From positions 32,001-96,000 of the forward strand of contig JBNRMN010000033.1 of assembly GCA_050309605.1 (NCBI GenBank): 64,000 nt of DNA, given 5' to 3'. How positions within the stretch are numbered: the first letter of the stretch is position 1; each line of letters starts with the position of its first letter. Below are positions 5,891-47,136 of this stretch, one piece after another. Below the pieces are notes generated by a model. That model saw only the letters and a list, made by a program, of their open reading frames with translations, was not told the origin of the DNA and made no database searches. Origin of the DNA: Anaerohalosphaeraceae bacterium (GTDB lineage: Bacteria; Planctomycetota; Phycisphaerae; Sedimentisphaerales; Anaerohalosphaeraceae). The position numbers and the translations under genes are program-made.

Positions 5891-6154
5891 TCTCTCACCT
5901 TGGCCGCACAAAACCGACGGCCGGTCAATTTGTCAGAAAAATCCATACTCATACCTGTGAAACAATCAACTCATATAAGCCGACTGAATCAATGGCATCT
6001 ACTGTTTCGAAATAAGTTCAACGCTCAAAAGGTTGGTCAATCCAATAAAGGTATATTGTTTAAGAAACGACATCGACCCACTTTATTTGAATAATATCTG
6101 TTTTTTCAATTCACTGGCAACATTGTCACCTTATAATAAATATTTGATTTCTGG

Positions 6155-6889
6155 TCATAGCAAGGCTTTGACTTTAACATAGCTCAGCAATTTTTGATAG
6201 TAATCACGAATAGACTCAAAAGATTTAAATTCACAGCGAGAAGCAATGTTTTCAAAAGTCCTCTTCCGAATTTCTCTTTCGTACTGTTGTTGTTTAATCT
6301 GTGGAGCTACTACAATAAATTTAGCATGAAAATCTTGTAATTCAGAAAATTTAATAAAGGCATTTCTAAAATTTGTTGAACTCTCAACTTCAAATAATCT
6401 CGCAGGGAAAGCCCTTTGATTGAACCAAATCACATCAATATATCTTGCTGTTTCATTAATGATGTGCTTGTATGTAAAGGCAGGGCAGATCTTTATGCTT
6501 GATATAGAACCAAGAGGCTTTCCATTGAATGTTTTCGTTTTGTCAGGGGTGTAAGTACCATACTCTTTGGCTTCTCCAATCTCCAATAAAATACTTTGTA
6601 TTTCGGTATGTACGTATTCTTTGGTTTCTTTTTGGGGTTCTCTTTGGCTGGCCCTGTCAATTTTGTCTAAATAGGTGGTTAAGGCGTATAAACCTAACCC
6701 TATTCTTGAAAATGTCGGGTCTCTTTGTACCCTTTCCTGTATGGTCTTGAAAGGTGTTTTGCCGGTTAATTTGCGATATTTTGATATTTCTTTGTATATA
6801 TATTGCAGCGAAGCCATATAGTTATTATTCAACATGACTTTCTCGATCGCTTTACTGTATGTAATCTTTTTATCTTTGCTGGATGTCAT
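6155..6889 (-). CDS. Winged-HTH (HARE-HTH-like) plus PD-(D/E)XK-type restriction-endonuclease-like protein
   Basis: AT-rich ORF. N-terminal segment TYSKAIEKVM...ASLQYIY...GKTPFKTI...FSRIGLGLYAL; C-terminal IDVIWF...LFEVESST nuclease-like motif. Alternative start at 6910. Confidence 0.6.
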   Translation of the reverse strand: MTSSKDKKITYSKAIEKVMLNNNYMASLQYIYKEISKYRKLTGKTPFKTIQERVQRDPTFSRIGLGLYALTTYLDKIDRASQREPQKETKEYVHTEIQSILLEIGEAKEYGTYTPDKTKTFNGKPLGSISSIKICPAFTYKHIINETARYIDVIWFNQRAFPARLFEVESSTNFRNAFIKFSELQDFHAKFIVVAPQIKQQQYEREIRKRTFENIASRCEFKSFESIRDYYQKLLSYVKVKALL

Positions 6890-12064: not shown

Positions 12065-14512
12065 ATGTACAGAAACGACAAATCAGCATTGACGGTTTTG
12101 ATTTTTTTTCTGGTGGGTTTTTTCGCCGTGTGTGCCGCGGTCGATTCGGCTTTTCAGGATTACCCCTACCAGCCCGCGGCGTTTACACAGGTGCATTTCG
12201 AGGACGCTTTTTGGGCGCCGCGGATTGAGACCAACCGCACGGCGACGATTCCGTTCGCGTTTAAGCAGTCAGAGGATACGGGGCGTATTGAAAACTTCAA
12301 GGTTGCCGCCAAACTGTCGGACAAGCCTTGGCAGGGCGATTTCGGTTTCAATGACAGCGATGTGTTCAAGATTATCGAGGGGGCCTCGTACAGCCTGATG
12401 GTGCATCCGGATCCGGAACTGGACGCCTATCTGGATCAACTGATCGCATGGATCGGGGCCGCCCAGGAGCCGGACGGCTATCTTTATACTGCCTGGACGG
12501 CGCAGGCCCGCAAGGACGGTCGCGCCATTGCCTGCTGCTACGAAAAAGAGCGCTGGGATAACATCCGCGACGCTCACGAACTGTATAATGTCGGGCATAT
12601 GTACGAAGCGGCCGTGGCGCACTATCTGGCGACGGGCAAACGCAGTTTTTTGGATATTGCCGTCAAAAACGCGGATTTGGTCTGTTCGGTATTTAATCCG
12701 GGCGGTCGGCTCGATCCGCCGGGCCATCAGGAAATCGAGATTGGCCTGGTTAAGCTGTATCGCGTTACCGGGGATGAGAAATACCTCAATCAGGCCAAAT
12801 TTTTCCTGGATATGCGCGGGCGCAACGCCGACAAACGGCGTCTGTACGGGCCTTACAGTCAGGATCACAAGCCGGTGGTCGAGCAGACCGAGGCGGTCGG
12901 GCACGCGGTGCGGGCGGCGTATATGTACGCGGCGATGGCGGATGTGGCGTCGCTGACCGGCGATGCGTCGTATTTGAAGGCCATTGACACGATTTGGGAC
13001 AATGTCGTCTCGAAAAAGCTTTATCTTACCGGCGGCATCGGCGCTCGCCACGCCGGCGAGGCGTTCGGGGACAATTATGAACTGCCCAACCGCACGGCGT
13101 ATTGCGAAACCTGTGCGGCGATTGCCAATGTGTTCTGGAATCATCGGATGTTTTTGCTGCATGGCAAGGCTGATTACATCGATGTGATGGAATTGGCGCT
13201 GTATAACAATGTGCTCAGCGGGGTGTCGCTGGACGGGATGCTGTTTTTCTATCCGAATCCGCTGGAAAGTGCGGCCGGACACGACCGTCAGCCGTGGTTC
13301 GGCTGCGCGTGCTGTCCGAGCAATATCTGCCGTTTTATGGCCTCGGTGCCCGGGTATGTCTATGCGGTGCGTAACGGGGCGGTTTATGTCAATCTTTACG
13401 TCAGCGGAAAAAGCGAGCTGGCCGCAGGCGACGGAACCGTCACATTGACTCAATCGACCGATTATCCCCATCACGGCAAGGTGGTGCTGACGATGGAGTC
13501 GGATACGCCGGGGCCGCTGGCGCTGCATCTGCGGATTCCCGGCTGGGCGCGGAACAAACCCGTCCCGAGCACGCTGTATTCAGTGCTCAAGCCGTCCGAA
13601 CAGGCGGTCGGACTGACCGTCAATGGTCAAGCCGTTCCGGTCGATCTTCACAACGGCTTTGCGGTCATTGATCGCACGTGGAAGGCCGGCGATACCGTTT
13701 TGCTGGAGCTGCCGATGACGGTGCGGCGGGTGGTCTGTGATGAGCGTGTGCGGGACAATGTCGGCAAGGTTGCCCTGCAGCGCGGGCCGCTGGTGTATTG
13801 TCTGGAAGGCGTCGATGTGGACCAGGGCCGAGTATTGAATCTGATGCTGCCCGATGAGACGGAGTTCAAGACCGAATACAAACCCGATTTGCTGGGCGGG
13901 GTTACTGTCATTCAGGGCGCGGCGGTGGAACTGAGCCGCACCCTGGAAGGCGGACTGGAACGCAGCGAACGCGCGTTTTCGGCTATTCCTTATTATGCCT
14001 GGGCACATCGCGGACGAACGCCGATGGCTGTGTGGCTGCCGCGGACCGAACAGGCCGCCGTGCCGCTGCCGGCGCCGACGATTGCATCCCAAAGCAAGGT
14101 CAGCGCCTCGTACCAAACGACGGTCGGCAATGCGCGGCTTGAGTTTGTGCAGGATCAGCTTGTGCCGAAATCTTCGGGCGATCAGGAACAGGGCTTTTAT
14201 CACTGGTGGCCGCGAAAAGGCACGACCGAATGGATTCAGTATGATTTTAAGGCGCCGACGACGGTGTCTTCGGTCGCGGTCTATTGGTTTGACGATACGG
14301 GTCGGGGCGAGTGCCGCATTCCCAAGTCCTGGCGGGTGCTTTATCGGGACGCAGAGGCATGGAAACCCGTCGAGCCTGCCGGCGAGTACACCACCACACG
14401 CGACGCCTTTGACCGCGTTCGTTTCAAACCGGTCACCACCGACGCGCTGCGTCTGGAGATGATCTTTCAAGACAATTATTCATCAGGCATTCAGGAATGG
14501 GTTGTTGAGTAA
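12065..14512 (+). CDS. Secreted GH127 beta-L-arabinofuranosidase-like protein with C-terminal carbohydrate-binding-like domain
   Basis: FNDSDVFK, HELYNVGH, GHAVRA, YCETCA, FFYPNPL, WFGCACCP, LRIPGW, RGPLVYC. Confidence 0.92.
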   Translation: MYRNDKSALTVLIFFLVGFFAVCAAVDSAFQDYPYQPAAFTQVHFEDAFWAPRIETNRTATIPFAFKQSEDTGRIENFKVAAKLSDKPWQGDFGFNDSDVFKIIEGASYSLMVHPDPELDAYLDQLIAWIGAAQEPDGYLYTAWTAQARKDGRAIACCYEKERWDNIRDAHELYNVGHMYEAAVAHYLATGKRSFLDIAVKNADLVCSVFNPGGRLDPPGHQEIEIGLVKLYRVTGDEKYLNQAKFFLDMRGRNADKRRLYGPYSQDHKPVVEQTEAVGHAVRAAYMYAAMADVASLTGDASYLKAIDTIWDNVVSKKLYLTGGIGARHAGEAFGDNYELPNRTAYCETCAAIANVFWNHRMFLLHGKADYIDVMELALYNNVLSGVSLDGMLFFYPNPLESAAGHDRQPWFGCACCPSNICRFMASVPGYVYAVRNGAVYVNLYVSGKSELAAGDGTVTLTQSTDYPHHGKVVLTMESDTPGPLALHLRIPGWARNKPVPSTLYSVLKPSEQAVGLTVNGQAVPVDLHNGFAVIDRTWKAGDTVLLELPMTVRRVVCDERVRDNVGKVALQRGPLVYCLEGVDVDQGRVLNLMLPDETEFKTEYKPDLLGGVTVIQGAAVELSRTLEGGLERSERAFSAIPYYAWAHRGRTPMAVWLPRTEQAAVPLPAPTIASQSKVSASYQTTVGNARLEFVQDQLVPKSSGDQEQGFYHWWPRKGTTEWIQYDFKAPTTVSSVAVYWFDDTGRGECRIPKSWRVLYRDAEAWKPVEPAGEYTTTRDAFDRVRFKPVTTDALRLEMIFQDNYSSGIQEWVVE

Positions 14513-14555
14513 GCGTAATTTTCTTTGACCTGCCGGCAACGAAACGGTATCCTAA

Positions 14556-14731
14556 CTCAAACTGATCGATGGCCAGTTTGAGAGATCAAAAATCAAAAAT
14601 CATAAATTAAAGAGAAAAATTGGGGATTCGCCCTTTTGGGCGAGCCATTTCATTGCCTTTTTTAGAACACTGTAACATGTTTTATGGACTGTGTTTATGT
14701 CAAAATAGATCCGGTTTTCGTTTAGTTTGAG
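14556..14731. repeat. ~170-bp dispersed intergenic element, copy 1 (terminal inverted repeats, 7-nt units)
   Basis: Colinear with 28394-28562: CTCAAA..GATGGCCAGTTTGAGAGATCAAAAATCAAA...GGATTCGCCCTTT...CACTGTAACAT...TTATGTCAAAA.AGATCCG.TTTTCG. Confidence 0.85.
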
Positions 14732-14803
14732 ATACTCAATAGTTTATGGTATCTTTTTTTTGGGTAATCAATAGCAGGTTTTGGATTTGCGTCTGTCTCC
14801 AAA

Positions 14804-16687
14804 ATGGCTGAGAAAACAACGTCAAGCGCCACCAAGTCGTCCTCGACGCCGCTGAAGTCGTTTATGGCCGTCGGCCCGACGCTTCATTACAGCCATCCGT
14901 TTGTCCATCGGTTCTGGGGGCTGACGGTGGTGGTGTATATTCTGGCGTGCTTTTTTTGGAATCGAATCGTCATTGGCGGGTTGATTTCGCTGGTGGCCAC
15001 CGATGTTATTGATCCGGGGCTGTGGAGTTTGGGGCGATTCGCGGCGTTTCCCCTGAGCATTTATGAATATCCGTGGCAGATTGTGGTACTGGGGACGGTG
15101 ATGGGGATTCTGGCGGCTGTGCCGGTGCTTGTGTCGCAATTGTACAGTTTTCGGTACAGCATTCCCTTGATTTTGTCGGTGATGTTTATCGCCAAGCTGT
15201 ACTTTTTCGGTCTATTTGTGGGTCTTAGCTGTATTGCGGCGGCGTGTCGGCCTCTGCGGTTTCGGTCGCGGTTTATCGCCATTGCGTTGTGTATGGCCCC
15301 GCAGGTGATTTATTGGGCAATCTGGGGCGGCTATACGACCGCCGATCCGCTGCGCTGGGGGTTTTCGTATGCACCGTGGATTTACGCCTGGTTGACGGGG
15401 CTGTTTCTGGCGGGGGTCGTGTTGGGTGTGGGGCACTATACGCGGTATCGGCCGGGGTTGATTTTTGCGCTGTCGCTGGTGTTGCTGGTCTCGGCCTACG
15501 GCGTCTTCCAGACACGTATCGGTTTTGCAGAGCTGGATTATCAGCTTTATGTCGCCGGCAACAACCCCGAAGAGGTGGTGGAGTTTCACAGTTATTCGCT
15601 TTCTGAGGTGATTGATGCGGTGATTGCCGATGACGCGATGCGCAGCTATTTGTTCGGACGTTATTATCCAACCGAGCCGACGGTCCTTCGAGAACGGCTC
15701 AAAGAAGAAATTGAACAGTCGATGATGACGATGCAGTGGCCGCACTGGTTTGAAAAGAAAATGCCCGATCGTCTGTATTACCGAGGCCGACGGACCGAGC
15801 TGCGCAATGATTATCGCCTGTTTATGGAGCGCTGGCCGCAGAGCAAACGGATGCCGACAGCGCTGTATTTCAGCGCACTGCTGAATGAATATCATCCCGA
15901 TATTCGTCATTTCCGTCATACCGAGACACTGCGTTTTTACAACGATTATCCGTTCAAAAGTAACATTTTGATCTGGCAGGAGTTGTTTAATCGCTTTTCG
16001 CAGAGTCCCGAATCGCTGGAGGCGCGCTGGCGTCTGGCCTGGCATGATGCTTCCGAGGGGCGATTTGAGCGGGCGATGGAACTTTGCCAGGTGGCTCGTT
16101 CCATGATTCGCGAACAGCTCCAGAAGGCCCAGCAGCGGGCCGAACGTCAGATCAGCGAATCGATATTTTCGGCCTTTGAGCCGCCTTTGCCGACAGTGAT
16201 GACACCGCGCAAACTGCGCGATCTGGATCTGCGGCTGCGTAAACTTATGCGTCTGATCGACCGTGAAAACCAGGGACCGGATGAGGCGTCGCGCCGCCGG
16301 CTGGCGACTTTTGTGGGGCTGAATCCGTATGCGCTCGATTATGAGTCGCGTCTGAACGCCCTGCTTTCGGAGATGCCGGATGACGATCCGCTGCGCGATA
16401 ATATTCTGCTGGCCAGGGCGCTGCTCACTGTCGATGCGCGTGAGCGTGCGGCGGTATTGAGAGAACTGGCGCAAACCTACGAGGGCACGGAGGCGGGGAT
16501 TCGTGCCCTATACGAACAGGCGATGTCGCTGCTGACGGTATGGAAGGATTCCCGGCTCGATGCACAGGCCCGGCGCATGCTGCAGGAGGATATTCGCAGC
16601 ATACTGACCGGTTTTCTTGAATCCTATCCTGACAGCATTTACGCCGATCCGGCGCGGTCGCTTTTACAATCGCTGCCGTCGTCCTGA
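14804..16687 (+). CDS. Multi-pass membrane protein with C-terminal helical (TPR-like) domain
   Basis: Several hydrophobic helices in the first ~240 aa, then TPR-like segments (LFMERWPQSKRMPTALY, FLESYPDSIYADPAR). Confidence 0.7.
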   Translation: MAEKTTSSATKSSSTPLKSFMAVGPTLHYSHPFVHRFWGLTVVVYILACFFWNRIVIGGLISLVATDVIDPGLWSLGRFAAFPLSIYEYPWQIVVLGTVMGILAAVPVLVSQLYSFRYSIPLILSVMFIAKLYFFGLFVGLSCIAAACRPLRFRSRFIAIALCMAPQVIYWAIWGGYTTADPLRWGFSYAPWIYAWLTGLFLAGVVLGVGHYTRYRPGLIFALSLVLLVSAYGVFQTRIGFAELDYQLYVAGNNPEEVVEFHSYSLSEVIDAVIADDAMRSYLFGRYYPTEPTVLRERLKEEIEQSMMTMQWPHWFEKKMPDRLYYRGRRTELRNDYRLFMERWPQSKRMPTALYFSALLNEYHPDIRHFRHTETLRFYNDYPFKSNILIWQELFNRFSQSPESLEARWRLAWHDASEGRFERAMELCQVARSMIREQLQKAQQRAERQISESIFSAFEPPLPTVMTPRKLRDLDLRLRKLMRLIDRENQGPDEASRRRLATFVGLNPYALDYESRLNALLSEMPDDDPLRDNILLARALLTVDARERAAVLRELAQTYEGTEAGIRALYEQAMSLLTVWKDSRLDAQARRMLQEDIRSILTGFLESYPDSIYADPARSLLQSLPSS

Positions 16688-37511: not shown

Positions 37512-40082
37512 ATGAAAATCCCGACTGCAACCTACCGGCTTCAGTTTCACGCAGAGTTTACCTTTCGCGATGCGCGGGCGATCCTGGATTATCTGCATCG
37601 GCTGGGGATCAGTGATATGTACGCCTCGCCGATATTCCAGGCGGTCCAGGGCAGTACGCACGGGTATGATGTCGCCGATCCGAATCGGTTCAATCCCGAA
37701 CTGGGCGGTCGGGACGATTTTGACGCCCTCAGCCGCGAAAGACAGCGGTTCGGCCTGGGCTGGCTGCAGGACATCGTGCCCAACCATACGGCTTTTTCTC
37801 CGGAAAACGCCATGCTGATGGATGTCCTGGAGAAACGCGAAGACAGCGTCTTTTATCGTTTTTTTGATATTGACTGGGACGATCCCGATCCCTCATTGAA
37901 GGGCAAGGTCTTGATTCCGATTCTCGGCTCGCCTCTGGACGAGGTACTTGATGCCGGTGAGCTGACGCTGACGACTCAAGACGGCAGGCCGATGCTGTGT
38001 TACTATGATCATTGCTTTCCTTTGAACGCCGCCTCGGCTCGGCAATTTGACTCGATGAGCGATGCCGATCTGGCCCAGTACCCACAGGGCGCCGAGGGCA
38101 AGGCGCGGATGAAAGCGCTGCTGGATAAACAATATTATGTGATGGACTTTTGGAAAAACGCCAATGAACGCATCAACTATCGCCGTTTTTTTTACATTAA
38201 CGACTTGATTTCCATGCGCGTTGAGGATGAGGCGGTGATGGACGCGACGCATCGGCTCATCATCGAGCAGGTACGCCGCGGGCATTTTACCGGCCTGCGG
38301 ATAGATCATATCGACGGCCTGTACGATCCCGGCCACTATCTGGAGCGTCTTCGAGAGGCGTGTCCGGAGGCGTACATCGTTGCCGAAAAGATTCTCGAAC
38401 ACGATGAGCCGCTGTGCGAAAAATGGCCGATTGAGGGAACGACCGGCTATGACTTTGGGGCGCAGGTCAATGCGCTGTTCTGTAACCGGGACAATCGGTC
38501 GGCATTTTTGGAAGGTTACCAAACGTTTATCGGCCAAGACATCGACTACGAGCGGCTGCTGTATGACAATAAACGCCTGATTCTGAAAAAATATATGGCC
38601 GCCGACCTGCGCCGGCTGATGCGCTGTGTACGGCGGCTGCTGGATACAACGGCCGATGATGACCGGCTTGAAGCGGCGATGAGCGCTTTTGTCGCGTCCT
38701 TTCCGGTCTATCGCAGTTATTTTGACGGCAGGGAATTTGGCGCATTTGATCGGCGGTGCATCCGTCAGGCCATCCAAACGGCTGTGCGTTTTGAACCGAA
38801 ACTGACCCGACAAATCCAAACCCTGACGACGCTGCTGCCGCTGTCCGGCGAGGCATCGAAGCCCATCGACGCGGCGACGGCGGCTTTTGTCGGACGATTG
38901 CAGCAGTTGACCGGCCCGGTCATGGCCAAAGGCTTTGAAGATACGCTGCTGTACATTTTTTACCCGTTGGCCTCGCTGAATGAAGTCGGCGGCGCGCCGG
39001 TTATGTTCGGACTGAGCGAAGCGGAGTTTTACGGTTTTATTCAGAACCGTCAAACGCGCTGGCCGCATGCGATGAACGCCACCGCCACCCACGACACCAA
39101 ACGCGGCGAGGATGTTCGCGCCCGGCTGAACGTGCTGTCCGAAATGCCGGATGCGTGGTTTGAGAAGGTCAATCAGTGGAGCCGAATCAATGAACACTGC
39201 AAAACCAGACACGAAGGACAGCTTATCCCCGACCGCAACGATGAATATCTGATCTATCAAACGCTGCTGGGCGCAAAGCCGTTTGAGGAGGGGCTTTCAG
39301 CGGCATTTCTGGAGCGTGTCAAGGCCTATACGGTCAAGGCACTGCGTGAAAGCCAGCGGCATACGACCTGGGTCGAGCCGAACGAGGCGTACGAACAGGC
39401 TGCGACCGCGTTTATCGACCGAATTGCTGCCGAGAATACGGATTTTATCGCATCGTTTGAGCCGTTCTGTAAGCGGATTGCCGAGTATGGCATCATCAAT
39501 TCTCTTTCGCAGACGCTGCTGAAGATGACCGCGCCGGGCGTGTGCGACTTTTATCAGGGCAGCGAATTATGGGAACTGAGTCTGGTCGATCCGGACAATC
39601 GCCGACCGGTCGATTATGCGCAGCGCAGTGCAATGCTCGATACCCTCATCCGCGACAGCCGACACAGCCGCACGGCACTGCTCAACAACCTGATTGAGAC
39701 GCGCACCCGGGGCGGGATTAAAATGTTTTTAATCCATACGATTCTTCAACAGCGAAAAGCATTTCCGGAATTGTTTTTGCAGGGCGCGTTTGTGCCGCTG
39801 CAAATTCAGGGGCGCCGCCGTCAGCACATACTGGCGTTTGCCCGCTGTTTTGCGGATCGCTGCGCTGTGACCGTTGTGCCGCGGTTTGTCAGCACACTGG
39901 CCGAGCCGGACGTACTACCTTTGGGGGACGCCGTCTGGGGCGATACGCGCATTTGTCTGCCGAACGATTTCCCGACCCGATGGAACAACCCCGTGACCGA
40001 CGAATCGGTTGCCGCCAAAGACAGCCTTTCGGTCGGACAAATCCTGAATACGTTTCCGGTGGCGTTTTTAACAGCGTCATAA
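37512..40082 (+). CDS. treY: Malto-oligosyltrehalose synthase
   Basis: PTATYRLQ, GSTHGYDV, DIVPNH, INYRRFF, GLRIDHIDGL, THDTKRGED, SLVDPDNRRPVD. Confidence 0.95.
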   Translation: MKIPTATYRLQFHAEFTFRDARAILDYLHRLGISDMYASPIFQAVQGSTHGYDVADPNRFNPELGGRDDFDALSRERQRFGLGWLQDIVPNHTAFSPENAMLMDVLEKREDSVFYRFFDIDWDDPDPSLKGKVLIPILGSPLDEVLDAGELTLTTQDGRPMLCYYDHCFPLNAASARQFDSMSDADLAQYPQGAEGKARMKALLDKQYYVMDFWKNANERINYRRFFYINDLISMRVEDEAVMDATHRLIIEQVRRGHFTGLRIDHIDGLYDPGHYLERLREACPEAYIVAEKILEHDEPLCEKWPIEGTTGYDFGAQVNALFCNRDNRSAFLEGYQTFIGQDIDYERLLYDNKRLILKKYMAADLRRLMRCVRRLLDTTADDDRLEAAMSAFVASFPVYRSYFDGREFGAFDRRCIRQAIQTAVRFEPKLTRQIQTLTTLLPLSGEASKPIDAATAAFVGRLQQLTGPVMAKGFEDTLLYIFYPLASLNEVGGAPVMFGLSEAEFYGFIQNRQTRWPHAMNATATHDTKRGEDVRARLNVLSEMPDAWFEKVNQWSRINEHCKTRHEGQLIPDRNDEYLIYQTLLGAKPFEEGLSAAFLERVKAYTVKALRESQRHTTWVEPNEAYEQAATAFIDRIAAENTDFIASFEPFCKRIAEYGIINSLSQTLLKMTAPGVCDFYQGSELWELSLVDPDNRRPVDYAQRSAMLDTLIRDSRHSRTALLNNLIETRTRGGIKMFLIHTILQQRKAFPELFLQGAFVPLQIQGRRRQHILAFARCFADRCAVTVVPRFVSTLAEPDVLPLGDAVWGDTRICLPNDFPTRWNNPVTDESVAAKDSLSVGQILNTFPVAFLTAS

Positions 40083-40083
40083 G

Positions 40084-40116
40084 AAAAATGGGACAGGTCG
40101 ATTCAACCTGTCCCAT
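40084..40116. terminator. Intrinsic terminator between convergent treY and leuB
   Basis: 11-bp stem ATGGGACAGGT / ACCTGTCCCAT, with an A-run on the left giving a U-tail for the minus strand. Confidence 0.7.
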
Positions 40117-40155
40117 GATTTGAAGAGTTGTTTTTCTGACTTCCGGTTGGTGTTG

Positions 40156-41241
40156 TTATTCGGCAACTTTTTGGGCGACCAGATCGCCGACTTCGCTGGT
40201 GGTGTAGCCCATTTTTCCGGCGGCCAGGGATTTGAGTTTGTTGCCGGTGACCCAGCGGACGGCCTGTTCGACCGCATCGGCCGCGGCGTCTTGGCCGAGT
40301 GTCTGGAGCATCATCGCCATCGCGCAGACGGCCGCCAGCGGATTGATCACGCCCATGCCGGTGTACTTGGGGGCGCTGCCGCCGATGGGTTCAAACATCG
40401 AGACGCCTTCCGGATTGATGTTGCCGCCGGCGGCGATGCCCATGCCGCCCTGGGTGATCGCGCCCAGGTCGGTGATGATGTCGCCGAACATATTGCCGGT
40501 GACCAGCACGTCGAACCATTCCGGGCTTTTGACCATCCACATACACGTCGCATCGACGTGGTAATAATCGCGTCGGATGTCGGGGTAATCTTTTTCGCCC
40601 ATCTCGTGAAAGGCGCGCTCCCACAGGTCATAGATATAGGTCAGCACGTTGGTTTTGCCGACCAGGCCGAGGGTGTTTTCTTTGCCCACGCCGCGGGCCT
40701 TCTTGCCGTATTTTCGGGTGTATTCGAAGGCGTACTTCAGACAGCGATCCACCTGGAAGCGGTTATAGACGGCGCTTTGCACCGCCACTTCCTGCGGCGT
40801 GCCCTTCATCGTAAAGCCGCCCGCCCCGCAGTAGGCGTCGCCGGTGTTTTCACGCACCACGACATAATCAATCTCGGCCGGGCCTTTGTCCTTCAGCGGC
40901 GTTTCCACGCCGGGAAACAGCCGCACCGGACGCAGGTTGATGTATTGATCCATCTCAAACCGCATCCGCAGCAACAGCCCTTTTTCGAGGATGCCGGGTT
41001 TGACGTCGGGATGGCCGATCGCGCCGAGCAAAATCGCGTCGTGCTGTTTGAGATCCTCGACCGCACCGTCCGGCAAAATCTCGCCGGTGCGTTTGTACCG
41101 CTCGCCGCCAAAGTCAAAGTCGGTCTTTTCGACCTTAAACCCGAACTTGGCCGCCACCGCATCCATTACTTTTACTGCTTCAACAGTTACTTCCGGCCCC
41201 GTGCCGTCGCCGCCGATAATCGCAATCTTATACGTCTTCAT
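40156..41241 (-). CDS. leuB: 3-isopropylmalate dehydrogenase
   Basis: GDGTGPEV, NLRP, VRENT, NMFGDIITD, EPIGGSAP; lies in an operon with leuA, leuC and leuD. Confidence 0.93.
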   Translation of the reverse strand: MKTYKIAIIGGDGTGPEVTVEAVKVMDAVAAKFGFKVEKTDFDFGGERYKRTGEILPDGAVEDLKQHDAILLGAIGHPDVKPGILEKGLLLRMRFEMDQYINLRPVRLFPGVETPLKDKGPAEIDYVVVRENTGDAYCGAGGFTMKGTPQEVAVQSAVYNRFQVDRCLKYAFEYTRKYGKKARGVGKENTLGLVGKTNVLTYIYDLWERAFHEMGEKDYPDIRRDYYHVDATCMWMVKSPEWFDVLVTGNMFGDIITDLGAITQGGMGIAAGGNINPEGVSMFEPIGGSAPKYTGMGVINPLAAVCAMAMMLQTLGQDAAADAVEQAVRWVTGNKLKSLAAGKMGYTTSEVGDLVAQKVAE

Positions 41242-41284
41242 TACTTTGCTATCCTTTCATAAGTGGTTGTTTCAATATTTTCTT

Positions 41285-41304
41285 AAGTAAAAAGGTAAAA
41301 TTAC
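41285..41304. repeat. Downstream IR arm of four-helix-bundle cassette 1
   Basis: AAGTAAAAAGGTAAAATTAC versus upstream arm AGGGAAAAGGGCAAAATGAC (minus strand, 41668-41687): 15/20. Confidence 0.55.
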
Positions 41305-41672
41305 CGCTTTCCTTTGCATCTCAGGTTACTCGAAGCCAGTATTTTTGAAATTTCATCCAATTCGCTCAAAAACCATGCGGTTTTTTGCGGCGTTGAGCGC
41401 TTACTGTCGCGCAGCAGAGCCATCCACATTTTGCTTTCGTTGGCGGATTTGAGCGAAATTGACGAAAAATTTGTAAATTCTTTTTTGCTGCTTGCAGACT
41501 GCCCTTCGACATAATTGGCCAGAATGCTGCTGCCGCTTCGAAAAAGCTGGTCGCTGATGCGTCTGGAAATACTGTCATCGGGAAGCCCATCAAGAAACTC
41601 AATCAATTTCAAAATAAAACGGTAAAGTCGTTTCTTGAGGGCAGCAACAAACTTTTCCTTTTCACCTGTCAT
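41301..41672 (-). CDS. Four-helix-bundle protein (TIGR02436; 23S rRNA IVP/Avd-like), copy 1
   Basis: QLFRSGSSILANYVEG...SSKKEF...SLKSANESKMW..LL...E..EI.KIL. Start MTGEKEK at 41672; AT-rich. Confidence 0.9.
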   Translation of the reverse strand: MTGEKEKFVAALKKRLYRFILKLIEFLDGLPDDSISRRISDQLFRSGSSILANYVEGQSASSKKEFTNFSSISLKSANESKMWMALLRDSKRSTPQKTAWFLSELDEISKILASSNLRCKGKR

Positions 41673-41688
41673 TTTGCCCTTTTCCCTT

Positions 41689-42171
41689 TTACTTTTGCCT
41701 TTTGATATGTTCCAGCAGTCCGTCGTCGTTGACGATTTCGAGGGCAAAGTCCGGCAGCGGGGTAAAGGCGATGGTCGTCCCCTGCGTCTTGTTGGCAATC
41801 GTGCCGCCTTTGTAGTCGATTTCCAGCTCGTCACCGTCGTTGATCTTGTCCAGTGCCCCGTGCAGCTCGATGGGGTAAAAGCCGCAGTTGATGCAGTTGC
41901 GGTAAAAGATGCGGGCAAACGACTGGGCGATGACGGCGCCGACCTGTGCGCCCTGAATCGCCCAGACGGCGTGCTCGCGGCTGGAGCCGCAGCCGAAATC
42001 ATCCCCGCAGACAATCACATCGCCGGGCTGAACCTTCTTGACAAACCCGGTATCCAGGTCTTCCATACAGTGCTTTGCCAGCTCGGCCGCATCGTCCGAA
42101 TTCAAATACCGCGCCGGGATGATCTCGTCCGTATTGACGTGATCCCGCTTGTACACATGTGCTTTTGCCAT
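41689..42171 (-). CDS. leuD: 3-isopropylmalate dehydratase small subunit
   Basis: VNTDEIIPARYL, FGCGSSREHA, SFARIFYRN. Confidence 0.95.
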   Translation of the reverse strand: MAKAHVYKRDHVNTDEIIPARYLNSDDAAELAKHCMEDLDTGFVKKVQPGDVIVCGDDFGCGSSREHAVWAIQGAQVGAVIAQSFARIFYRNCINCGFYPIELHGALDKINDGDELEIDYKGGTIANKTQGTTIAFTPLPDFALEIVNDDGLLEHIKRQK

Positions 42172-42191
42172 AAAATCTCCGATTTTTTATG

Positions 42192-42236
42192 AAATTCGAA
42201 TCTCGAATTTCGAAATACGAAACAAATTCAAATTTC
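42192..42236. repeat. Downstream IR arm of four-helix-bundle cassette 2
   Basis: AAATTCGAATCTCGAATTTCGAAATACGAAACAAATTC; 37/45 identical to the reverse complement of 42617-42661. Confidence 0.85.
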
Positions 42237-42258
42237 AAAGTATTCCAATTTTCGAAAC

Positions 42259-42621
42259 TTATTCACTCTTTCGAAGGATTGCTCCGAAAATATTCATCAG
42301 CTCCGTTGCCTCTGTTATCAATAAACTACATTCGTGAATCGCCGCATCATCAACAATATGTAACAATCTGAGCCAGTACCTGGACTCCTTGGCCTCTTTC
42401 CGGCAGATTTTAATTCGCATCAGAAAATCTTTCTTGCTCAACGCCTCATTGGCCTCAATGTAATTGGCTCCGACCGAACCTGAAGCTCGGACCAACTGCT
42501 TAATGTCTTCGATATTTGCGATATCTTTGGCAATAGTCCTGACAAAATCTCGAACTCTTTTGGCAAACTGATAAGTCCGTTCTTCCAAGTCATAGTGTTT
42601 TGTTTTTTTGTATTCGGACAT
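42259..42621 (-). CDS. Four-helix-bundle protein (TIGR02436), copy 2
   Basis: YDLEERT..FAK, QLVRASGSVGANYIEA, SKKDF, CRKEAKESRYWL, EATELMNIF. Confidence 0.93.
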   Translation of the reverse strand: MSEYKKTKHYDLEERTYQFAKRVRDFVRTIAKDIANIEDIKQLVRASGSVGANYIEANEALSKKDFLMRIKICRKEAKESRYWLRLLHIVDDAAIHECSLLITEATELMNIFGAILRKSE

Positions 42622-42661
42622 TAGAATTTGTTTCGGATTTCGAGATTCGGATTTCGAGTTT
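42617..42661. repeat. Upstream IR arm of four-helix-bundle cassette 2 (7-nt units)
   Basis: Minus strand reads AAACTCG AAATCCG AATCTCG AAATCCG AAACAAATTCTAATG, which includes the start codon. Confidence 0.85.
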
Positions 42662-42663
42662 AT

Positions 42664-43926
42664 CTATAGGTAGTTTCTGCAGTCGGCCAGTTTGCCTTCG
42701 ACGGCTGACGCCGCGGCTGTGGCGGGGTTGGCCAGATAGACTTCCGATTTCGGGCTTCCCATGCGTCCGACGAAGTTGCGGTTGGTCGTGCTGATGCACT
42801 TTTCGCCGGCGGCCAGGATGCCCATAAAACCGCCCAGGCACGCCCCGCAGGTCGGCGCACTGATGACGCAGCCGGCGTCATAGAAAATCTCGGCCAGCCC
42901 TTCATCGACCATCTGTTTCCAGACAACCGGTGTGGCCGGCACAACAATCGTGCGAATCGCGACCTGTTTGCCCTTCAAAATCGATGCGGCCACCCGCAGA
43001 TCCTCGATTCGTCCGTTGGTGCAGCTTCCGATATAGCACTGATCCATCGCCAATCCCGCACACAGACTGATCGGCTGGCCGTTGCTGGGCAGATGCGGCA
43101 GCGCGACCATCGGTTCCAGCGCCGAACAGTCAATCGTGTCTTTGTGTACATACTCGGCGTCGGTGTCGGACTCAAAGACGGTATATTCGCTTTTGTCCTT
43201 GAGCCGTCCGTCCAGATAGGCCCGGGTCGTGTCATCGACGCCGATGATGCCGTTTTTGCCGCCGGCCTCAATGGCCATATTCGTGATGGTCATCCGCGCT
43301 TCCATCGACATTTCCTTCAGCGCCGGACCGACGAACTCCATCGCCTTGTACAGCGCCCCGTCGGTGCCGATTCGCCGAATAACCTCCAGCATCACATCCT
43401 TGCTGTACACGCCCGTCGGCAGCGAGCCGGTCAGTGTAAACTTCATCGAGGCCGGGACCTTGAACCACAAAATCCCCGTCGCAATCGCCGCGGCCAGATC
43501 CGTCGAGCCGATGCCCGTCGAGAACGCCCCGAACGCCCCATACGTACAGGTGTGGCTGTCGCCGCCGACGATGACCTCGCCGGGGCGGATGTGTCCCTGT
43601 TCGGGCAGCAGGGCGTGGCAGACGCCGGCGCGGCCGAGCTTGTAATAATGGGTGATCTTTTTTTCTTTGGCCCAGGTATCCAGCCGCTTGTGCAGCTCGG
43701 CGCTTTTGATGTCCTTGGGCGGCTGAAAATGATCCGGAGTGACGACAATTTTGTCCCGGTCGAACACCCTGTCGATGCCGTGCGCTTTGAGCATCGAAAT
43801 CGCCGGCGGCGTCGTTACGTCGTGGCACATCACCAGATCAATCTTTGCATTGACCAGATCGCCTGCCTGAACCGACGGCTTGCCCGCCGCCCGGGCGAAA
43901 ATCTTTTCCGTTATTGTCATTGCCAT
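42664..43926 (-). CDS. leuC: 3-isopropylmalate dehydratase large subunit (short, homoaconitase-like type)
   Basis: [42 protein letters not shown]. Confidence 0.95.
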
Positions 43927-43930
43927 AAGA

Positions 43931-43980
43931 AAATCCTAAATTCTAAGCACTAAATATTAAACAAATTCAAAAAACAAAAA
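43931..43980. repeat. Downstream IR arm of four-helix-bundle cassette 3
   Basis: AAATCCT AAATTCT AAGCACT AAATATT AAACAAATTC; 39/50 identical to the reverse complement of 44360-44409. Confidence 0.85.
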
Positions 43981-43998
43981 TTCAAAACATAAAAACAA

Positions 43999-44358
43999 TT
44001 ATTGACTGTTGCGGAGCATGGCCGCAAAAATATAGACCAATTCTTCCGATTCTTTTTTCAACGCCGCTTGCCTTTGTTCCAACGACTCATTTGAAGTCTC
44101 CAAAAGCTCCAGCCAATACGCACTTTCTTTAGCTTCTTTTTTACATATCTTAACACGCATCATAAAATCTTTTTTGCTCAACGCATTGTTAGCCTCAATA
44201 TAATTGGCGCCCACCGACCCGCTGGAACGAACAAGCTGTTTGATATCATCATAAGCCGCAAAATCTTTCGGAAACCCGTGTACAAACTCCCGAACAGCCT
44301 TTGCAAATTTCAAAGTCCGCTCTTCAAGGTCATACGTTTTCGAGTTTTCTGCTTTCAA
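43999..44358 (-). CDS. Four-helix-bundle protein (TIGR02436), copy 3
   Basis: YDLEERT..FAK, QLVRSSGSVGANYIEA, SKKDF, CKKEAKESAYWL; TTG start. Confidence 0.92.
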   Translation of the reverse strand: MKAENSKTYDLEERTLKFAKAVREFVHGFPKDFAAYDDIKQLVRSSGSVGANYIEANNALSKKDFMMRVKICKKEAKESAYWLELLETSNESLEQRQAALKKESEELVYIFAAMLRNSQ

Positions 44359-44359
44359 C

Positions 44360-44409
44360 TTTTTCTTTTCTAAATTTGTTTAGAATTTAATGCTTATGAT
44401 TTAGTGCTT
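44360..44409. repeat. Upstream IR arm of four-helix-bundle cassette 3
   Basis: Minus strand reads AAGCACT AAATCAT AAGCATT AAATTCT AAACAAATTT. Confidence 0.85.
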
Positions 44410-44415
44410 CCTCCG

Positions 44416-45969
44416 CTACAGCGGCGCTTTTTCGCTGTGATTGGTCCCGACACACGCCGCGATGCGGTTGATGGCATCCAGGTAGGCCTTTGCGCTGGCT
44501 TCGACGATGTCGGTCGAAGCGCCGCGTCCGATATAGGTGCGTCCGTTGGCGTCTTTAATCCGCACGGTCGCTTCGCCCATGGCCTCTTTGCCGCCGGTGA
44601 TTGCGCGCATGGAGTAGTTCTCCAGTTCCGGTTTTTGGCCTGTCGCCAGACGAATCGCCTCATAAGCCGCATCCACCGGGCCGTCGCCGCAGGCCGCGGC
44701 CTGATGCACTTTACCGTCTTCGGTACGAATGCGCACTGTGCCGGTCGGAATCGTTCCCGTGCCGCTGGTGACGTTCAGATACTCCAGCACATATGTCTGC
44801 TCCACGGTGCGCACTTCGTCGTTGATGATCGCGGCGATGTCCTCGTCGAAAATCTCTTTCTTCTTGTCGGCGATCTCAAGAAATTTTTCGTAGGCCGTCT
44901 GGATTTCCGCTTCGCTGAGGTTGTACCCCAACTGTCGGCAGCGGTCGATAAAGCCGTGCCGCCCGGAATGCCGCCCCAGCACCATCCGTGAGCCGCTCAG
45001 GCCGATCATCTCCGGCGTCATAATTTCATACGTCTCGCGGTGTTTGAGGATGCCGTCCACGTGAATGCCCGATTCATGGGCAAAGGCGTTCTTGCCGACG
45101 ATGGCTTTGTTCGGCTGAATCACAAAGCCGGTCAACTGCGAGACGAGCTGACTGGTGCGGAAGATTTCCTGTGTCTTGATATTGGTCGTTACGTTGCCCT
45201 CAAAGAAATCATGGCGCGTATGAATCGCCATAACGACCTCTTCCATTGCCGCGTTGCCGGCCCGTTCACCGATACCGTTGATGGTGCACTCAATTTGACG
45301 GGCGCCGTTTCGCACGCCGGCCAGCGAGTTGGCGGTTGCCACCCCCAAATCATTATGACAATGCGTGCTGAGGACAGCCTTTTCGATGCCTTTGACGTTT
45401 TTTCTGAGATTGGCGATGATCTGCCCGTACTCATACGGCATAATATAGCCGACCGTGTCGGGAATATTCAGCGTTGTGGCCCCGGCCTCGATGACCGCCG
45501 ACAGGATTTCATACAAAAAGCTCATCTCACTGCGGCAGGCGTCCTCGGGCGAAAATTCCACATCATCGGTGTATTGCCGTGCCATCTGAATCGCCTCAAC
45601 CGCCATCTTCAGCACTTGGTCGGGGGCCTTTCGGAGCTTGTGCTTCATGTGGATGGGGCTTGTCGCAATAAATGTATGGATGCGTCGTTTGGCCGCCGAG
45701 GCCAGGGCCTTGCCCGCTGCGTCGATGTCTTTCTGGTTGGCTCGCGCCAGTCCGCAGATCACCGGTCCGTCCACCTGTTCGGCGCACAGCCGCGTCGCCT
45801 CAAACTGGGCCGGCGAGGAGACGGGAAATCCCGCCTCAATCACATCTACGCCCATTTTTGCCAATTGATGGGCGATTTCAATTTTTTCGCTGATTGACAA
45901 GGCCGCACCGGGCGACTGCTCGCCGTCCCGAAGCGTCGTATCAAAAATAATCACCTTTTCCGCTGACAT
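44416..45969 (-). CDS. leuA: 2-isopropylmalate synthase
   Basis: IFDTTLRDGEQSPG, IEAGFP, PDTVG, HCHNDLG, GIGERAGNA, HESGIH, and regulatory domain GPVDA. Alternative start at 45975. Confidence 0.96.
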   Translation of the reverse strand: MSAEKVIIFDTTLRDGEQSPGAALSISEKIEIAHQLAKMGVDVIEAGFPVSSPAQFEATRLCAEQVDGPVICGLARANQKDIDAAGKALASAAKRRIHTFIATSPIHMKHKLRKAPDQVLKMAVEAIQMARQYTDDVEFSPEDACRSEMSFLYEILSAVIEAGATTLNIPDTVGYIMPYEYGQIIANLRKNVKGIEKAVLSTHCHNDLGVATANSLAGVRNGARQIECTINGIGERAGNAAMEEVVMAIHTRHDFFEGNVTTNIKTQEIFRTSQLVSQLTGFVIQPNKAIVGKNAFAHESGIHVDGILKHRETYEIMTPEMIGLSGSRMVLGRHSGRHGFIDRCRQLGYNLSEAEIQTAYEKFLEIADKKKEIFDEDIAAIINDEVRTVEQTYVLEYLNVTSGTGTIPTGTVRIRTEDGKVHQAAACGDGPVDAAYEAIRLATGQKPELENYSMRAITGGKEAMGEATVRIKDANGRTYIGRGASTDIVEASAKAYLDAINRIAACVGTNHSEKAPL

Positions 45970-46711
45970 AGTCATTCTCCGATCATTTCAAAAGAAGCGG
46001 CTATTATGCACCAAATAGGCGCATATTTCCACTGGAAACTGAAAAAACGAGGGGGTCTGTGAGGTTATTTTGGGGAATTTATGCGCCGCAGGGGCGCAGA
46101 ATAATCCGACCGACCAAGTCGGTTTTTAGAGATGCACAAACTGTACGACCCTGCTTCATACCTCATAATCTATCGATAACTCCCCTCCATTGCAAGCAAA
46201 AAACGTTTTTTTTACGGCCGAGGTATGATACAACAGCTCGAATTGAGGCCTTGAAATGCCCTGCAAAAAAGCCATAATATCGGCATACTGCATTGTCATT
46301 CAATCTGCCTCTGTTCTTCTAAAAACAGGTAAACGGATTTCCCGACACACCGCCGAACACTTCCTGATGGGATACTTTCTTATCATTCGAAAACCGGGTT
46401 CGCCCAAGATGATTTCCAAAAGGGGTAAACCGGGTGAATTAGGCATTGGGGAGAATTTCAAAATTTTTTCGTAAATTTTGAAAATTTTAATTTTTCTCTT
46501 TGGCTGTATGGCGGGGTTTTTATTGGACGTAAGTCTGGTTTGCCGCGACGACTTCCTTTATGTAGTGTTTAAGCTTGTTGTGATTCATACATCTTGTAGC
46601 AAGCTCCGATTTTGCCGATAAAATCCGCGATTCAAGATTTTTGCGTCGGCTATCCGATATGCTTAGCGTTAACAAGGATGTGAAACGAACGCCGACAGGA
46701 GTTATCGTGGT

Positions 46712-46861
46712 ATGAGCAAGCAGGAAATAATCGAGTGCATTATCGAGATTAACCGAACCGCCAAGCCGGAGTTTTTGGATCAGTTCACGATTGAGGATCT
46801 TGATCTGTATCTTGAACATCTGATGGAAGTGGACCTCGAAGAGGTCTGCGTTTGTGCCTGA
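46712..46861 (+). CDS. Small acidic hypothetical protein (49 aa)
   Basis: Below the ORF-track cutoff: MSKQEIIECIIEINRTAKPEFLDQFTIEDLDLYLEHLMEVDLEEVCVCA. CAGGAG RBS and amphipathic helical pattern. Confidence 0.65.
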   Translation: MSKQEIIECIIEINRTAKPEFLDQFTIEDLDLYLEHLMEVDLEEVCVCA

Positions 46862-47136
46862 TACGCCGGTCGCGGAGTCTGGCTCAGGCCGCCTGCGATG
46901 TCCTTTGTCTGTATGTCATCCCCCCTCTACGTGCAATCGCGCATCCAAGCCGTTTTGAGTACCCTGTCAACGCTTGTCGTTTGGGGATGTGCTGCCTGGC
47001 AAAACCCCATCTCCAAGGCTTTTGACAGGTTTTTTCGTTGATTCGGCGGGGCATTTTGGCTTGACAGGTCGGAGGAAGTTGGTATTGTAGCACATAAAAG
47101 ACGAGAATTTCGACTTTCTTTCGAAAGGAGTTTCGT

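Follow-up and report, generated by a model that had tools for sequence, protein, structure and literature searches.

Four-helix-bundle gene cassettes with inverted heptamer arms in the junctions of a leu operon of an Anaerohalosphaeraceae bacterium

The window analyzed here is a 64,000-nucleotide (nt) stretch of DNA from an Anaerohalosphaeraceae bacterium (assembly GCA_050309605.1, contig JBNRMN010000033.1, positions 32,001 to 96,000). The genome that holds it (3.4 Mb in 97 contigs, 99.7% complete) is called G000 below, and G, C and L numbers denote genomes, contigs and loci. The window contains a leu operon with the order leuA-leuC-leuD-leuB on the minus strand, and each of its three junctions holds one small gene that matches the TIGR02436/PF05635 family of four-helix-bundle (4HB) proteins, enclosed by two mutually inverted arrays of about 3–5 units of 7 nt. 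We refer to such an arm-gene-arm unit as a cassette (Table 1). The original prediction, made from the sequence alone, had described this gene order with a co-oriented, AT-rich gene of about 120 amino acids (aa) in every junction, and the open reading frames (ORFs), profile matches and base composition bore it out. The three genes scored 80.3, 68.7 and 73.3 bits against TIGR02436 (E values of 1e-22, 4e-19 and 2e-20; cut-off 24 bits) and 67.1, 50.3 and 55.2 bits against PF05635 (cut-off 33.8). The GC content was 0.33–0.47 in the cassettes versus 0.56–0.65 in the leu genes. 4HB2 and 4HB3 were 61% identical, and 4HB1 shared 29–37% identity with the other two. A search for terminator-like sites found none in the three leu junctions and one strong site after leuB; Rfam families gave no match in positions 39500–47000, except for one sub-threshold match 3' of leuB.

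Table 1. Coordinates of the leu genes, the 4HB genes and their arms, as positions in the window.
Feature	Positions	Strand	Remarks
leuA (2-isopropylmalate synthase)	44416-45975	-	First gene of the operon; ORF; NF002086, E 4e-239
5' arm, cassette 3	44344-44409	-	Units ACTAAAT/CATAAGC/ATTAAAT/TCTAAAC; starts 7 nt past leuA stop; spans TTG start of 4HB3; two inverted-repeat calls; pairs with 43936-43996 in predicted fold
4HB3 (119 aa, h2/h3 lineage)	43999-44358	-	TIGR02436/PF05635; TTG start; leuA/leuC junction
3' arm, cassette 3	43936-43996	-	Ends 9 nt short of leuC ATG
Inverted repeat, cassette 3	43936-43996 / 44344-44404		61 nt, 75%
leuC (3-isopropylmalate dehydratase large subunit)	42664-43926	-	ORF; NF001614, E 6e-184
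5' arm, cassette 2	42617-42661	-	Units CGAAATC/CGAATCT; starts 2 nt past leuC stop; reaches 4HB2 ATG
4HB2 (120 aa, h2/h3 lineage)	42259-42621	-	TIGR02436/PF05635; leuC/leuD junction
3' arm, cassette 2	42192-42236	-	Ends 20 nt short of leuD ATG
Inverted repeat, cassette 2	42192-42236 / 42617-42661		45 nt, 82% (37/45)
leuD (dehydratase small subunit)	41689-42171	-	ORF; LeuD/DmdB-family model TIGR02087, E 8e-54
5' arm, cassette 1	41673-41700 (core 41680-41694)	-	Units AAAAGTA/AAAGGGA/AAAGGGC; overlaps leuD stop codon
4HB1 (123 aa, h1 lineage)	41301-41672	-	TIGR02436/PF05635; ATG at 41672; leuD/leuB junction
3' arm, cassette 1	41285-41299	-	Short here, longer in G003 and G006; leuB start 43 nt on
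Inverted repeat, cassette 1	41285-41299 / 41680-41694		15 nt, 87%
leuB (3-isopropylmalate dehydrogenase)	40156-41241	-	Last gene of the operon; NCBIfam, E 2e-146
Terminator-like hairpin	40088-40116	-	13 pairs, then T run; 3' of leuB

The 7-nt periodicity of the arms was visible in the sequence of the leu cassettes. To compare arms, we used an arm score, the local alignment of the 5' flank with the reverse complement of the 3' flank, and set it against dinucleotide shuffles. The predicted repeat of cassette 2 was reproduced exactly, and that of cassette 3, claimed as 39 of 50 matches, was present and measured as a longer repeat at 75%; these cassettes had arm scores of 58 and 61–69, respectively. 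The repeat of cassette 1, claimed as 15 of 20, was likewise present, but its score of 22 lies within chance when taken alone. The orthologues of cassette 1 in G003 and G006 had longer arms, with scores of 39 and 42, so that the 3' arm in the window looks shortened. Whether the minimum-energy or the centroid structure was taken, in silico folding of the RNAs predicted pairing between the 5' and 3' arms of every leu cassette, and the fold z-scores of the whole RNAs (about 460–490 nt) were -5.6, -1.7 and -1.3 for cassettes 3, 2 and 1. Two compost runs labelled TRANSCRIPTOMIC, judged to be probably DNA and with small shares (0.11 and 0.07), gave contigs that were unbroken across two arm borders; the exact contigs span 42581–42731 and 43858–44069 and are silent on RNA ends or processing. 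The sequence joints listed in these runs, probably from other organisms' DNA, included none at the cassette borders.

The arm-gene-arm design was found to be a property of the gene family and not a peculiarity of the leu operon. G000 contained seven TIGR02436 matches, all located by inspection between co-oriented protein-coding genes, and all seven were flanked on both sides by tandem units of about 7 nt that were mutually reverse-complementary. The unit varied by copy (TTTTTAG, ATTTAGA, GATGGAC and GGTCAGA, in addition to the three leu types). From the order, we collected 131 family ORFs (G000, 33 related leu operons and 110 further loci, for which high-scoring canonical family members were favoured), 129 of them with full 140-nt flanks; the genomes compared are related and hence not independent, and arm alignments are uncertain in low-complexity sequence. 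The arm score exceeded the 99th percentile of the shuffles in 77 of the 129 and was above 30 in 70, versus 18 of 2230 crudely called G000 genes. The ten control genes with scores above 36 included two leu cassettes, leuC (which lies between two arms), a cassette with a PDDEXK_3 gene and one with an HNH-like gene. The median score was 32 with the cassettes' own partners, 17 with swapped partners and 18 with dinucleotide shuffles. At least three similar heptamers ran in the 5' flank of 79 cassettes versus 3 of 129 shuffled flanks, and the run length dropped steeply past five units (21 cassettes with five, 6 with six).

A wider sample of 80 loci, found with an alignment of 8 canonical members and thus covering the canonical subfamily and not the h1, h2 and h3 lineages of the leu copies, came from Bacteroidota, Planctomycetota, Acidobacteriota, Patescibacteria, Clostridia, Chloroflexota, Desulfobacterota, Proteobacteria and others. 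The arm score was above 26 in 54 of its 76 usable loci and above 30 in 43; among these 43, 24 had clearly periodic 5' arms, with a best period of 7 in 21 and of 8 in 3. Accidental complementarity between the AT-rich, low-complexity spacers of ordinary small genes would suffice for cassette 1, whose arms alone stay within chance (score 22, with the 99th percentile of the shuffles at 26.6), but the scores of cassettes 2 and 3, the family excess over the control genes, the difference between the observed and shuffle medians and the specificity for period 7 already refute it, and we give it virtually no credence. Two further features of the family were seen: one locus, L108 (G063:C1:45322-46061), carries a tandem pair of near-identical 4HB genes about 100 nt apart, and a few cassettes have strong direct, not inverted, flank similarity (95th percentile 92.8).

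The arms fitted the borders of the neighbouring genes. The 5' arm started at a median of 2.5 nt past the upstream same-strand stop codon (41 of 58 within -10 to +15), and the 3' arm stopped a median of 12 nt short of the following same-strand start (56 of 65 within -10 to +40); gene calling was rough, being based on longest ORFs or a codon model, and the latter distance is biased downward by the choice of the first start after the arm. Because the arm ends lie near stop and start codons, a closed stem would juxtapose the stop and start of the neighbouring genes. Both neighbours could be called for 112 cassettes, of which 81 shared their strand with both neighbours and 6 with neither. These results support the predicted bias toward junctions, with discrete cassettes sitting exactly between the genes of an operon. 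The arms were also asymmetric between strands. In 113 5' arms, AG occurred 0.84 times per heptamer versus 0.22 for CT, and the spacing between successive AGs peaked at 7 (193 cases versus at most 48 at any other spacing). The 5' arm was purine-rich in 54 of 70 arm pairs. The three leu cassettes have TAA, GAA or AGG cores in place of the AG core.

Comparison of the 33 related leu operons revealed that the content of the junctions turns over. At least one PF05635 ORF was found in or adjoining the operon in 12 of them and clear remnants in 2 more, whereas 19 had neither an ORF nor a remnant, several of these with compact junctions of 32–117 nt. All three junctions were filled by 4HB genes in G000 only. 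Five operons held a PDDEXK_3 (GxxExxY) gene flanked by inverted repeat arms of its own, one held an MNT-HepT pair, and other junctions were occupied by restriction-modification or unrelated genes. The genomes of the same genus as G000 (G001, G002, G003 and G006) illustrate the range. G003 carries 4HB3 at leuA/leuC (85% identical to the copy in the window), a gene-less (CATGAAG)n hairpin at leuC/leuD, and, at leuD/leuB, 4HB1 preceded by a small membrane ORF and a duplicated 5' arm. G006 has a gene-less h1-type hairpin with a relic of the 4HB3 3' arm at leuA/leuC, a different h2-type cassette at leuC/leuD and 4HB1 at leuD/leuB. G001 keeps arm relics at the first two junctions and, at leuD/leuB, an internally deleted 4HB1 with both arms. 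G002 has a gene-less h1-type hairpin at leuA/leuC, a decayed 4HB2 at leuC/leuD and a 174-nt spacer with no 4HB match at leuD/leuB. Hairpins that were ORF-less or internally deleted occurred in all four of these genomes and in G023.

The clearest case of a swap was seen between G000 and G006. Their leuC genes were 98% identical, with a synonymous divergence (dS) of 0.12, whereas the cassettes at leuC/leuD were 65% identical, with saturated dS and different arm units. Homology ended at the leuC stop codon and returned about 10 nt before the leuD start. The exchange took in the whole cassette together with its arms. Over the 33 leu operons and 61 genomes of the order, cassettes have been gained, lost, swapped, moved between junctions and reduced to gene-less hairpins, in agreement with the predicted spread into operon junctions. 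Presence and absence differed among relatives, but no clean empty site and no direct repeat of the target-site-duplication kind was seen at the cassette borders among close relatives.

Several other occupants of the leu junctions were recorded. The membrane ORF of G003 (L033, oriented 6115-6408) encodes 97 aa, has a weak holin-like PF07332 match (E = 2e-5, below the cut-off), and follows a second copy of the 5' arm and start codon of 4HB1; the intact 4HB1 cassette comes after it. The leuD/leuB junction of L034 (G005) contains the MNT-HepT toxin-antitoxin pair followed by a gene-less (CACAGAN)n hairpin, that of L054 (G039) a DNA methylase with HNH and EcoO109I-like fragments, and those of L056 and L057 (G026 and G033) a NIF3-family gene with unknown ORFs; a 772-aa rhamnosidase-like gene lies at leuC/leuD in L055 (G030). 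A miniature derivative was also present outside the leu operon of G000, where a gene-less h1-type hairpin that keeps the first 4HB1-type codons sits after an O-acetylhomoserine sulfhydrylase-like gene (C12, downstream of 14215-15555).

To place the leu copies, a quick maximum-likelihood tree of the 131 proteins was made with IQ-TREE, from few columns and with support from the Shimodaira-Hasegawa-like approximate likelihood ratio test (SH-aLRT) only. Seventeen of the 18 leu copies fell into two clades (SH-aLRT 95 for h1 and 99 for h2/h3), and the 18th, at leuD/leuB in G036, grouped with the canonical subfamily. Members of the h1 clade occupied leuD/leuB (four genomes), leuC/leuD (two) or the position after leuB (one). 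The h2/h3 clade was found at leuC/leuD in seven genomes, and three leuA/leuC copies were nested inside it (support 98), suggesting that the latter arose by copying from one junction to the next. With 4HB2, 4HB1 and LeuD as queries, a search was then made of 61 genomes of the order, and the loci of outliers were retrieved. Fifteen of 19 h2/h3-type copies and 10 of 19 h1-type copies lay in the leu operon. The remainder were in co-oriented housekeeping junctions, namely between V-type ATPase A and B genes (2 genomes), between a histidine kinase and a sigma-54 regulator (2), between gltX and pfkB (3), and at tmk/holB, ligT/recA and ribE/pdxA. These non-leu copies retained the arm type of their own lineage, and the arms and the gene thus travel together.

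The ratio of nonsynonymous to synonymous divergence (dN/dS) was 0.03–0.10 for 4HB1 among G000, G003 and G006 (0.06–0.10 for the copy in the window versus the other two) and 0.10 for 4HB3 between G000 and G003. The flanking leu genes gave 0.03–0.12, with dS similar to that of the cassette genes. The h1 and h3 copies have thus been inherited with the operon, with the protein kept under purifying selection. Stable inheritance at fixed positions, which the original prediction had named as a point against itself, holds for much of the history of these copies, yet turnover was seen as described above. The flanks with the arms were 0.80–0.97 identical in seven of seven related pairs versus 0.49–0.89 at third codon positions of the cassette genes, a difference that alignment of low-complexity arrays may inflate; by this measure the arms also appear to be under purifying selection.

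Such conservation could mean that the cassettes are a domesticated regulatory module of the leu operon, no longer selfish, in which the 4HB proteins and stems set the relative output or stability of leuA, leuC, leuD and leuB, for instance through binding of the proteins to the stems. It would agree with purifying selection equal to that on the leu genes, with dS that tracks the flanks, with conserved arms, and with two lineages that, in four families of the order, occur mainly in leu operons (the 15 and 10 of 19 copies above). However, most of the related leu operons do without such a gene or remnant, with junctions down to 32 nt, and G000 alone has all three filled. The same lineages also occur in unrelated operons, cassettes decay to pseudogenes and hairpins, and unrelated, selfish-looking genes (PDDEXK_3, MNT-HepT, restriction-modification) fill the same junctions. 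We therefore consider a regulatory module quite improbable.

An AlphaFold model of 4HB2, built with 27 relatives in the alignment, had a mean predicted local distance difference test (pLDDT) score of 91.6 and helices at residues 12–27, 34–58, 63–90 and 92–119. Its top fold match was 2RLD, with a template-modelling (TM) score of 0.80–0.88, followed by 2GSC with 0.60–0.66, both S23-family structures; the family profile matched the two entries at 1e-31 and 7e-33, respectively, and both were deposited with 5 chains. The helix-2 motif of the family, G/Q-x2-R-x3-S-x3-N-x2-E in PMC3936711, was present in the 27-member alignment that includes the three leu copies, with Q42, E56 and E79 invariant and R45, S49 and N53 conserved in at least 90%. 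A family member, Xcc0516, is cited as a homopentamer in PMC4990558, and the 4HB protein is likely a pentamer. A pentameric four-helix-bundle structure, occurrence in intervening sequences (IVSs) of rRNA and kinship with Avd are already in print for the family (PMC4990558 and PMC10053308). In-frame stops that interrupted otherwise full-length 4HB matches were mostly TGA (9 TGA, 2 TAA and 1 TAG among the matches listed), and at G000:C33:141360 a TGA takes the place of an ordinary residue in the conserved helix-2 motif, with the reading frame intact; such stops are probably recent nonsense mutations.

The original prediction had pointed to Avd, the accessory protein of diversity-generating retroelements (DGRs), and had considered movement through an RNA intermediate with a reverse transcriptase acting in trans. 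PMC10053308 places Avd in the same structural superfamily as the S23p family and has it act with a reverse transcriptase in DGRs. The 4HB2 model resembled Avd in fold (TM 0.68/0.73 with 4DWL and 0.72/0.78 with 8UB7, at 13% identity), a weak likeness given that four-helix bundles are common, and one relative's copy, L061, matched PF22296 (bAvd) as well. A retroelement-like system, in which a reverse transcriptase partners the Avd-like protein and the mobile form of the cassette is its excised RNA, would account for this likeness. However, no RVT_1 match was found in the whole G000 genome, whereas control genomes did match, and this comes close to refuting such a system for G000. The family profile did not reach Avd at the sequence level, no template/variable repeat pair was seen, and the arms bore no wobble signature (see below). 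The 4HB genes are thus no DGR component here, movement through an RNA intermediate found no support, and we judge the retroelement explanation highly improbable.

We next asked whether the arms have been selected as RNA or as DNA. If a structure is selected in the sense transcript, its mismatches are expected to include G.U freely and A.C rarely. The 70 arm pairs of the order contained 303 transversions, 104 sense-strand G.U and 95 A.C mismatches, and 43 arm pairs from other phyla contained 253, 64 and 80; pooled, there were 168 G.U and 175 A.C, with no excess. Since these counts are equal, selection on RNA pairing as such is not visible. Within a lineage, a cassette's own arms paired barely better than with those of a relative (44.6 versus 38.6, and 35.4 versus 30.6), so that an argument from covariation was rejected; arms of one lineage were conserved in sequence and did not covary. 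The sense duplex was the more stable in 46 of 70 pairs (-65.2 versus -61.6 kcal/mol, Wilcoxon p = 0.004), but the bias is too small, and depends too much on the flanks, to count for more than the mismatches. A role at the RNA level is nevertheless favoured by the shared orientation, by arms that fit cistron borders and are asymmetric between strands, by the stems predicted for the cassettes, by the RNase III gene of G000 (C26:7093-7728) and by the published behaviour of the rRNA relatives.

The reading we favour, with modest confidence, is that all three small genes are copies, drawn from two lineages, of a promoterless, heptamer-armed 4HB cassette that occupies mRNA junctions and would be handled there by RNase III. 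The cassettes would be read as part of the leuA-to-leuB transcript. The two arms would pair, loop out the inserted gene and bring the neighbouring cistrons together, and the long stem would be cut by RNase III, as in rRNA intervening sequences. Such cutting could make the insert tolerable in an essential operon and release the cassette's own mRNA. The cassette is probably expressed and processed as part of the host transcript. Spread would be rare and would take place as DNA, either by copying to another junction between co-oriented genes or by exchange between strains via the conserved flanking genes. The 4HB protein may recognize the repeat arrays of its own lineage, and both would for this reason be conserved together. 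In our reading, arm complementarity is kept by the sequence conservation of each arm together with DNA-level processes, and the unit moves as DNA. Template switching in quasi-palindromes is a known mechanism able to maintain the complementarity of arms, and it may do so here.

Besides the mismatch counts and the slight pairing advantage of own arms, several observations weigh against this reading. About 40% of family members had no clear arms at the thresholds used. The arm score of cassette 1 fell below the 99th percentile of the shuffles, its repeat ranked 25th in the region, and the fold z-scores of cassettes 2 and 1 were only -1.7 and -1.3. G002 still has gene-less h1-type hairpins, and a search of it with the 4HB1 query gave no h1-type gene; the two commonest array families of G000 go with broken 4HB copies, one with an in-frame TGA (C96) and one with a truncated match (C67).

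Much of the same evidence can be read at the level of DNA. The cassette may be a structure-specific mobile element whose arms, in the form of DNA hairpins, cruciforms or terminal repeats, serve a trans-acting enzyme of the host or of an element, much as REPINs (repetitive extragenic palindromic sequences forming hairpins) need a REP-associated tyrosine transposase (RAYT) and integron cassettes need a folded attC; the RNA stem would be a by-product, and co-orientation would merely reflect the need of a promoterless gene for host transcription. Such an element would leave no wobble signature on the sense strand, and conservation of the arms beyond synonymous sites, whole-cassette swaps with breakpoints at the arm ends, the presence of one lineage with its own arms in unrelated junctions, gene-less miniature hairpins and the lack of a reverse transcriptase match in G000 all agree with it. 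Related arm designs, moreover, carry nuclease-fold cargo (PDDEXK_3 in 5 of 33 leu operons and at G000:C21; HNH-like at G000:C90). On the other hand, no candidate enzyme or autonomous partner was identified, and neither a target-site duplication nor a clean empty site was seen among close relatives. A pure DNA hairpin does not predict the strand asymmetry of the arms, and the rRNA relatives are demonstrably processed as RNA (PMC4990558). We regard a purely DNA-level element as possible but rather unlikely, and in what follows keep to the mRNA-junction cassette.

The closest known counterpart is the IVS of 23S rRNA, and the link that the original prediction had drawn to it proved real. According to PMC4990558, the IVS in helix 45 of Coxiella burnetii 23S rRNA is closed by a terminal stem of 28 bp, which RNase III cleaves in vitro, and carries an S23p ORF with the heptamer GACAGAT repeated two to three times directly before the start codon, the number depending on the strain. 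It is AT-richer than its host and is held to be selfish and horizontally spread; a Leptospira IVS is cited there too. Both elements thus have a PF05635 ORF enclosed by terminal inverted repeats that form a stem, with tandem heptamers 5' of the ORF start; the arms of the leu cassettes measure 61, 45 and 15 nt. Unlike the IVS at an rRNA helix tip, the leu cassettes lie in the transcript of a protein-coding operon, at stop-to-start gaps, and all seven G000 copies are between protein-coding genes. Cutting their stems would split a polycistronic mRNA, with three copies in one operon. Family members wedged between cas genes, such as cmr3 and cmr2, have been read as CRISPR-associated (PMC3936711); in hindsight, this fits insertion into junctions.

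The cassettes also share features with short inverted-repeat elements of spacers, namely REPINs and miniature inverted-repeat transposable elements, among which gene-less miniatures outnumber gene-bearing forms and movement, if any, occurs in trans. They differ in that their arms are lineage-specific tandem heptamer arrays and their cargo, the 4HB gene alone, lacks a nuclease or transposase fold. Integron cassettes are promoterless and co-oriented behind a host promoter, their recombination site is an imperfect inverted repeat conserved in structure over sequence, and whole cassettes are exchanged. The 4HB arms, however, enclose the gene and do not lie at one end of it, no integrase is associated, and many housekeeping operons are occupied in place of a single array. 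The PDDEXK_3 (PF13366, TIGR04256) cassettes resemble the 4HB cassettes in using the same leu junctions, in being co-oriented and in having inverted arrays, of a CACAGAT or CGCGGAT word, but their cargo has a nuclease fold, and the arm word of the G000 copy recurs at about 10 nt, not 7. No printed description of this PDDEXK_3 design was found in open-access and bioRxiv texts. The same texts yielded none of an arm-gene-arm cassette outside rRNA, of heptamer arms as a family trait or of turnover in an operon. The leu-operon history, the measures of selection, the test for wobble pairs and the check for a reverse transcriptase are new here.

If the favoured reading is true, rRNA IVSs are merely the best-known landing site of a wider class of cassettes between co-transcribed genes in many phyla, and PF05635/TIGR02436, a common, uncharacterized family related to Avd, gains a testable nucleic-acid partner. 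A reason would also be offered for the dominance of period-7 repeats in the spacers of some genomes. An essential biosynthetic operon with three foreign inserts bears on polarity, mRNA processing and translational coupling, and the leu operon of this order, with full, swapped, decayed and empty junctions in close relatives, is a natural experiment.

Period-7 arrays were not restricted to cassettes. G000 contained 54 tandem arrays of at least 4 units with period 7, compared with 12, 7, 7, 0, 8, 0, 0 and 1 with periods 4, 5, 6, 8, 9, 10, 11 and 12, respectively; examples outside the window are C2:23625-23659, C90:26210-26277 and C63:62460-62511. An inverted partner within 1.5 kb was absent for 49 of the 54, and many of the arrays extended from a stop codon to just short of the next start. 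Orientation by stop-to-stop ORFs was too noisy (21 versus 13, with 20 unclear) and was replaced by a strand call from the codon model; among arrays with both flanks clearly coding one way, the sense strand was purine-rich in 25 and pyrimidine-rich in 6. The unit families GGTCAGA, GAATTNA, AAAGGNA, TTTTGAG, GATGGAC and TGAAATY of these arrays match arm families of G000 4HB cassettes, which suggests that the solo arrays form one group with the gene-less hairpins and the gene-bearing cassettes. Conceivably, the heptamer arrays are a binding code of the 4HB proteins: around five 7-nt units, each with its strand-specific AG core, would be read by one pentamer, and cassettes, hairpins and solo arrays would form one system that propagates as folded hairpin cassettes and acts on host mRNAs at cistron borders. 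Exchange of these cassettes would depend on structure and not on sequence, as in integrons, but within housekeeping operons. This extension is speculative and we consider it unlikely; if true, it would explain together the long-noted heptamer excess in bacterial spacers, the rRNA IVSs and the origin of Avd.

Other genes of G000 were seen near similar repeats. GxxExxY/PDDEXK_3 genes are present at C21:11760-12140 and C59:18089-18436, the C21 copy with inverted arrays of a CACAGAT/CACTGAT word recurring about every 10 nt; cassettes of the same kind lie in the leu junctions of G034, G027, G035, G015 and G026. A 183-aa ORF with HNH-like Cys/His motifs, judged by eye, lies within inverted (CACAGAG)n heptamer arrays at C90:7649-8200; it may represent a third type of gene carried between such arms. 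An ORF judged by eye to be RAYT/IS200-like (C90:77567-78139) has long flanking inverted repeats that are not heptamer arrays and are, by inspection, unlike the cassette arms; a second copy of its repeat lies past the next small membrane ORF. Finally, two prepilin-like genes contain heptamer arrays inside their 5' coding leaders, again judged by eye (C2:17424-17461 and C2:17983-18017), directly preceding a motif of the G-F-T-L-T-E-L type, and the arrays are therefore not confined to non-coding spacers.

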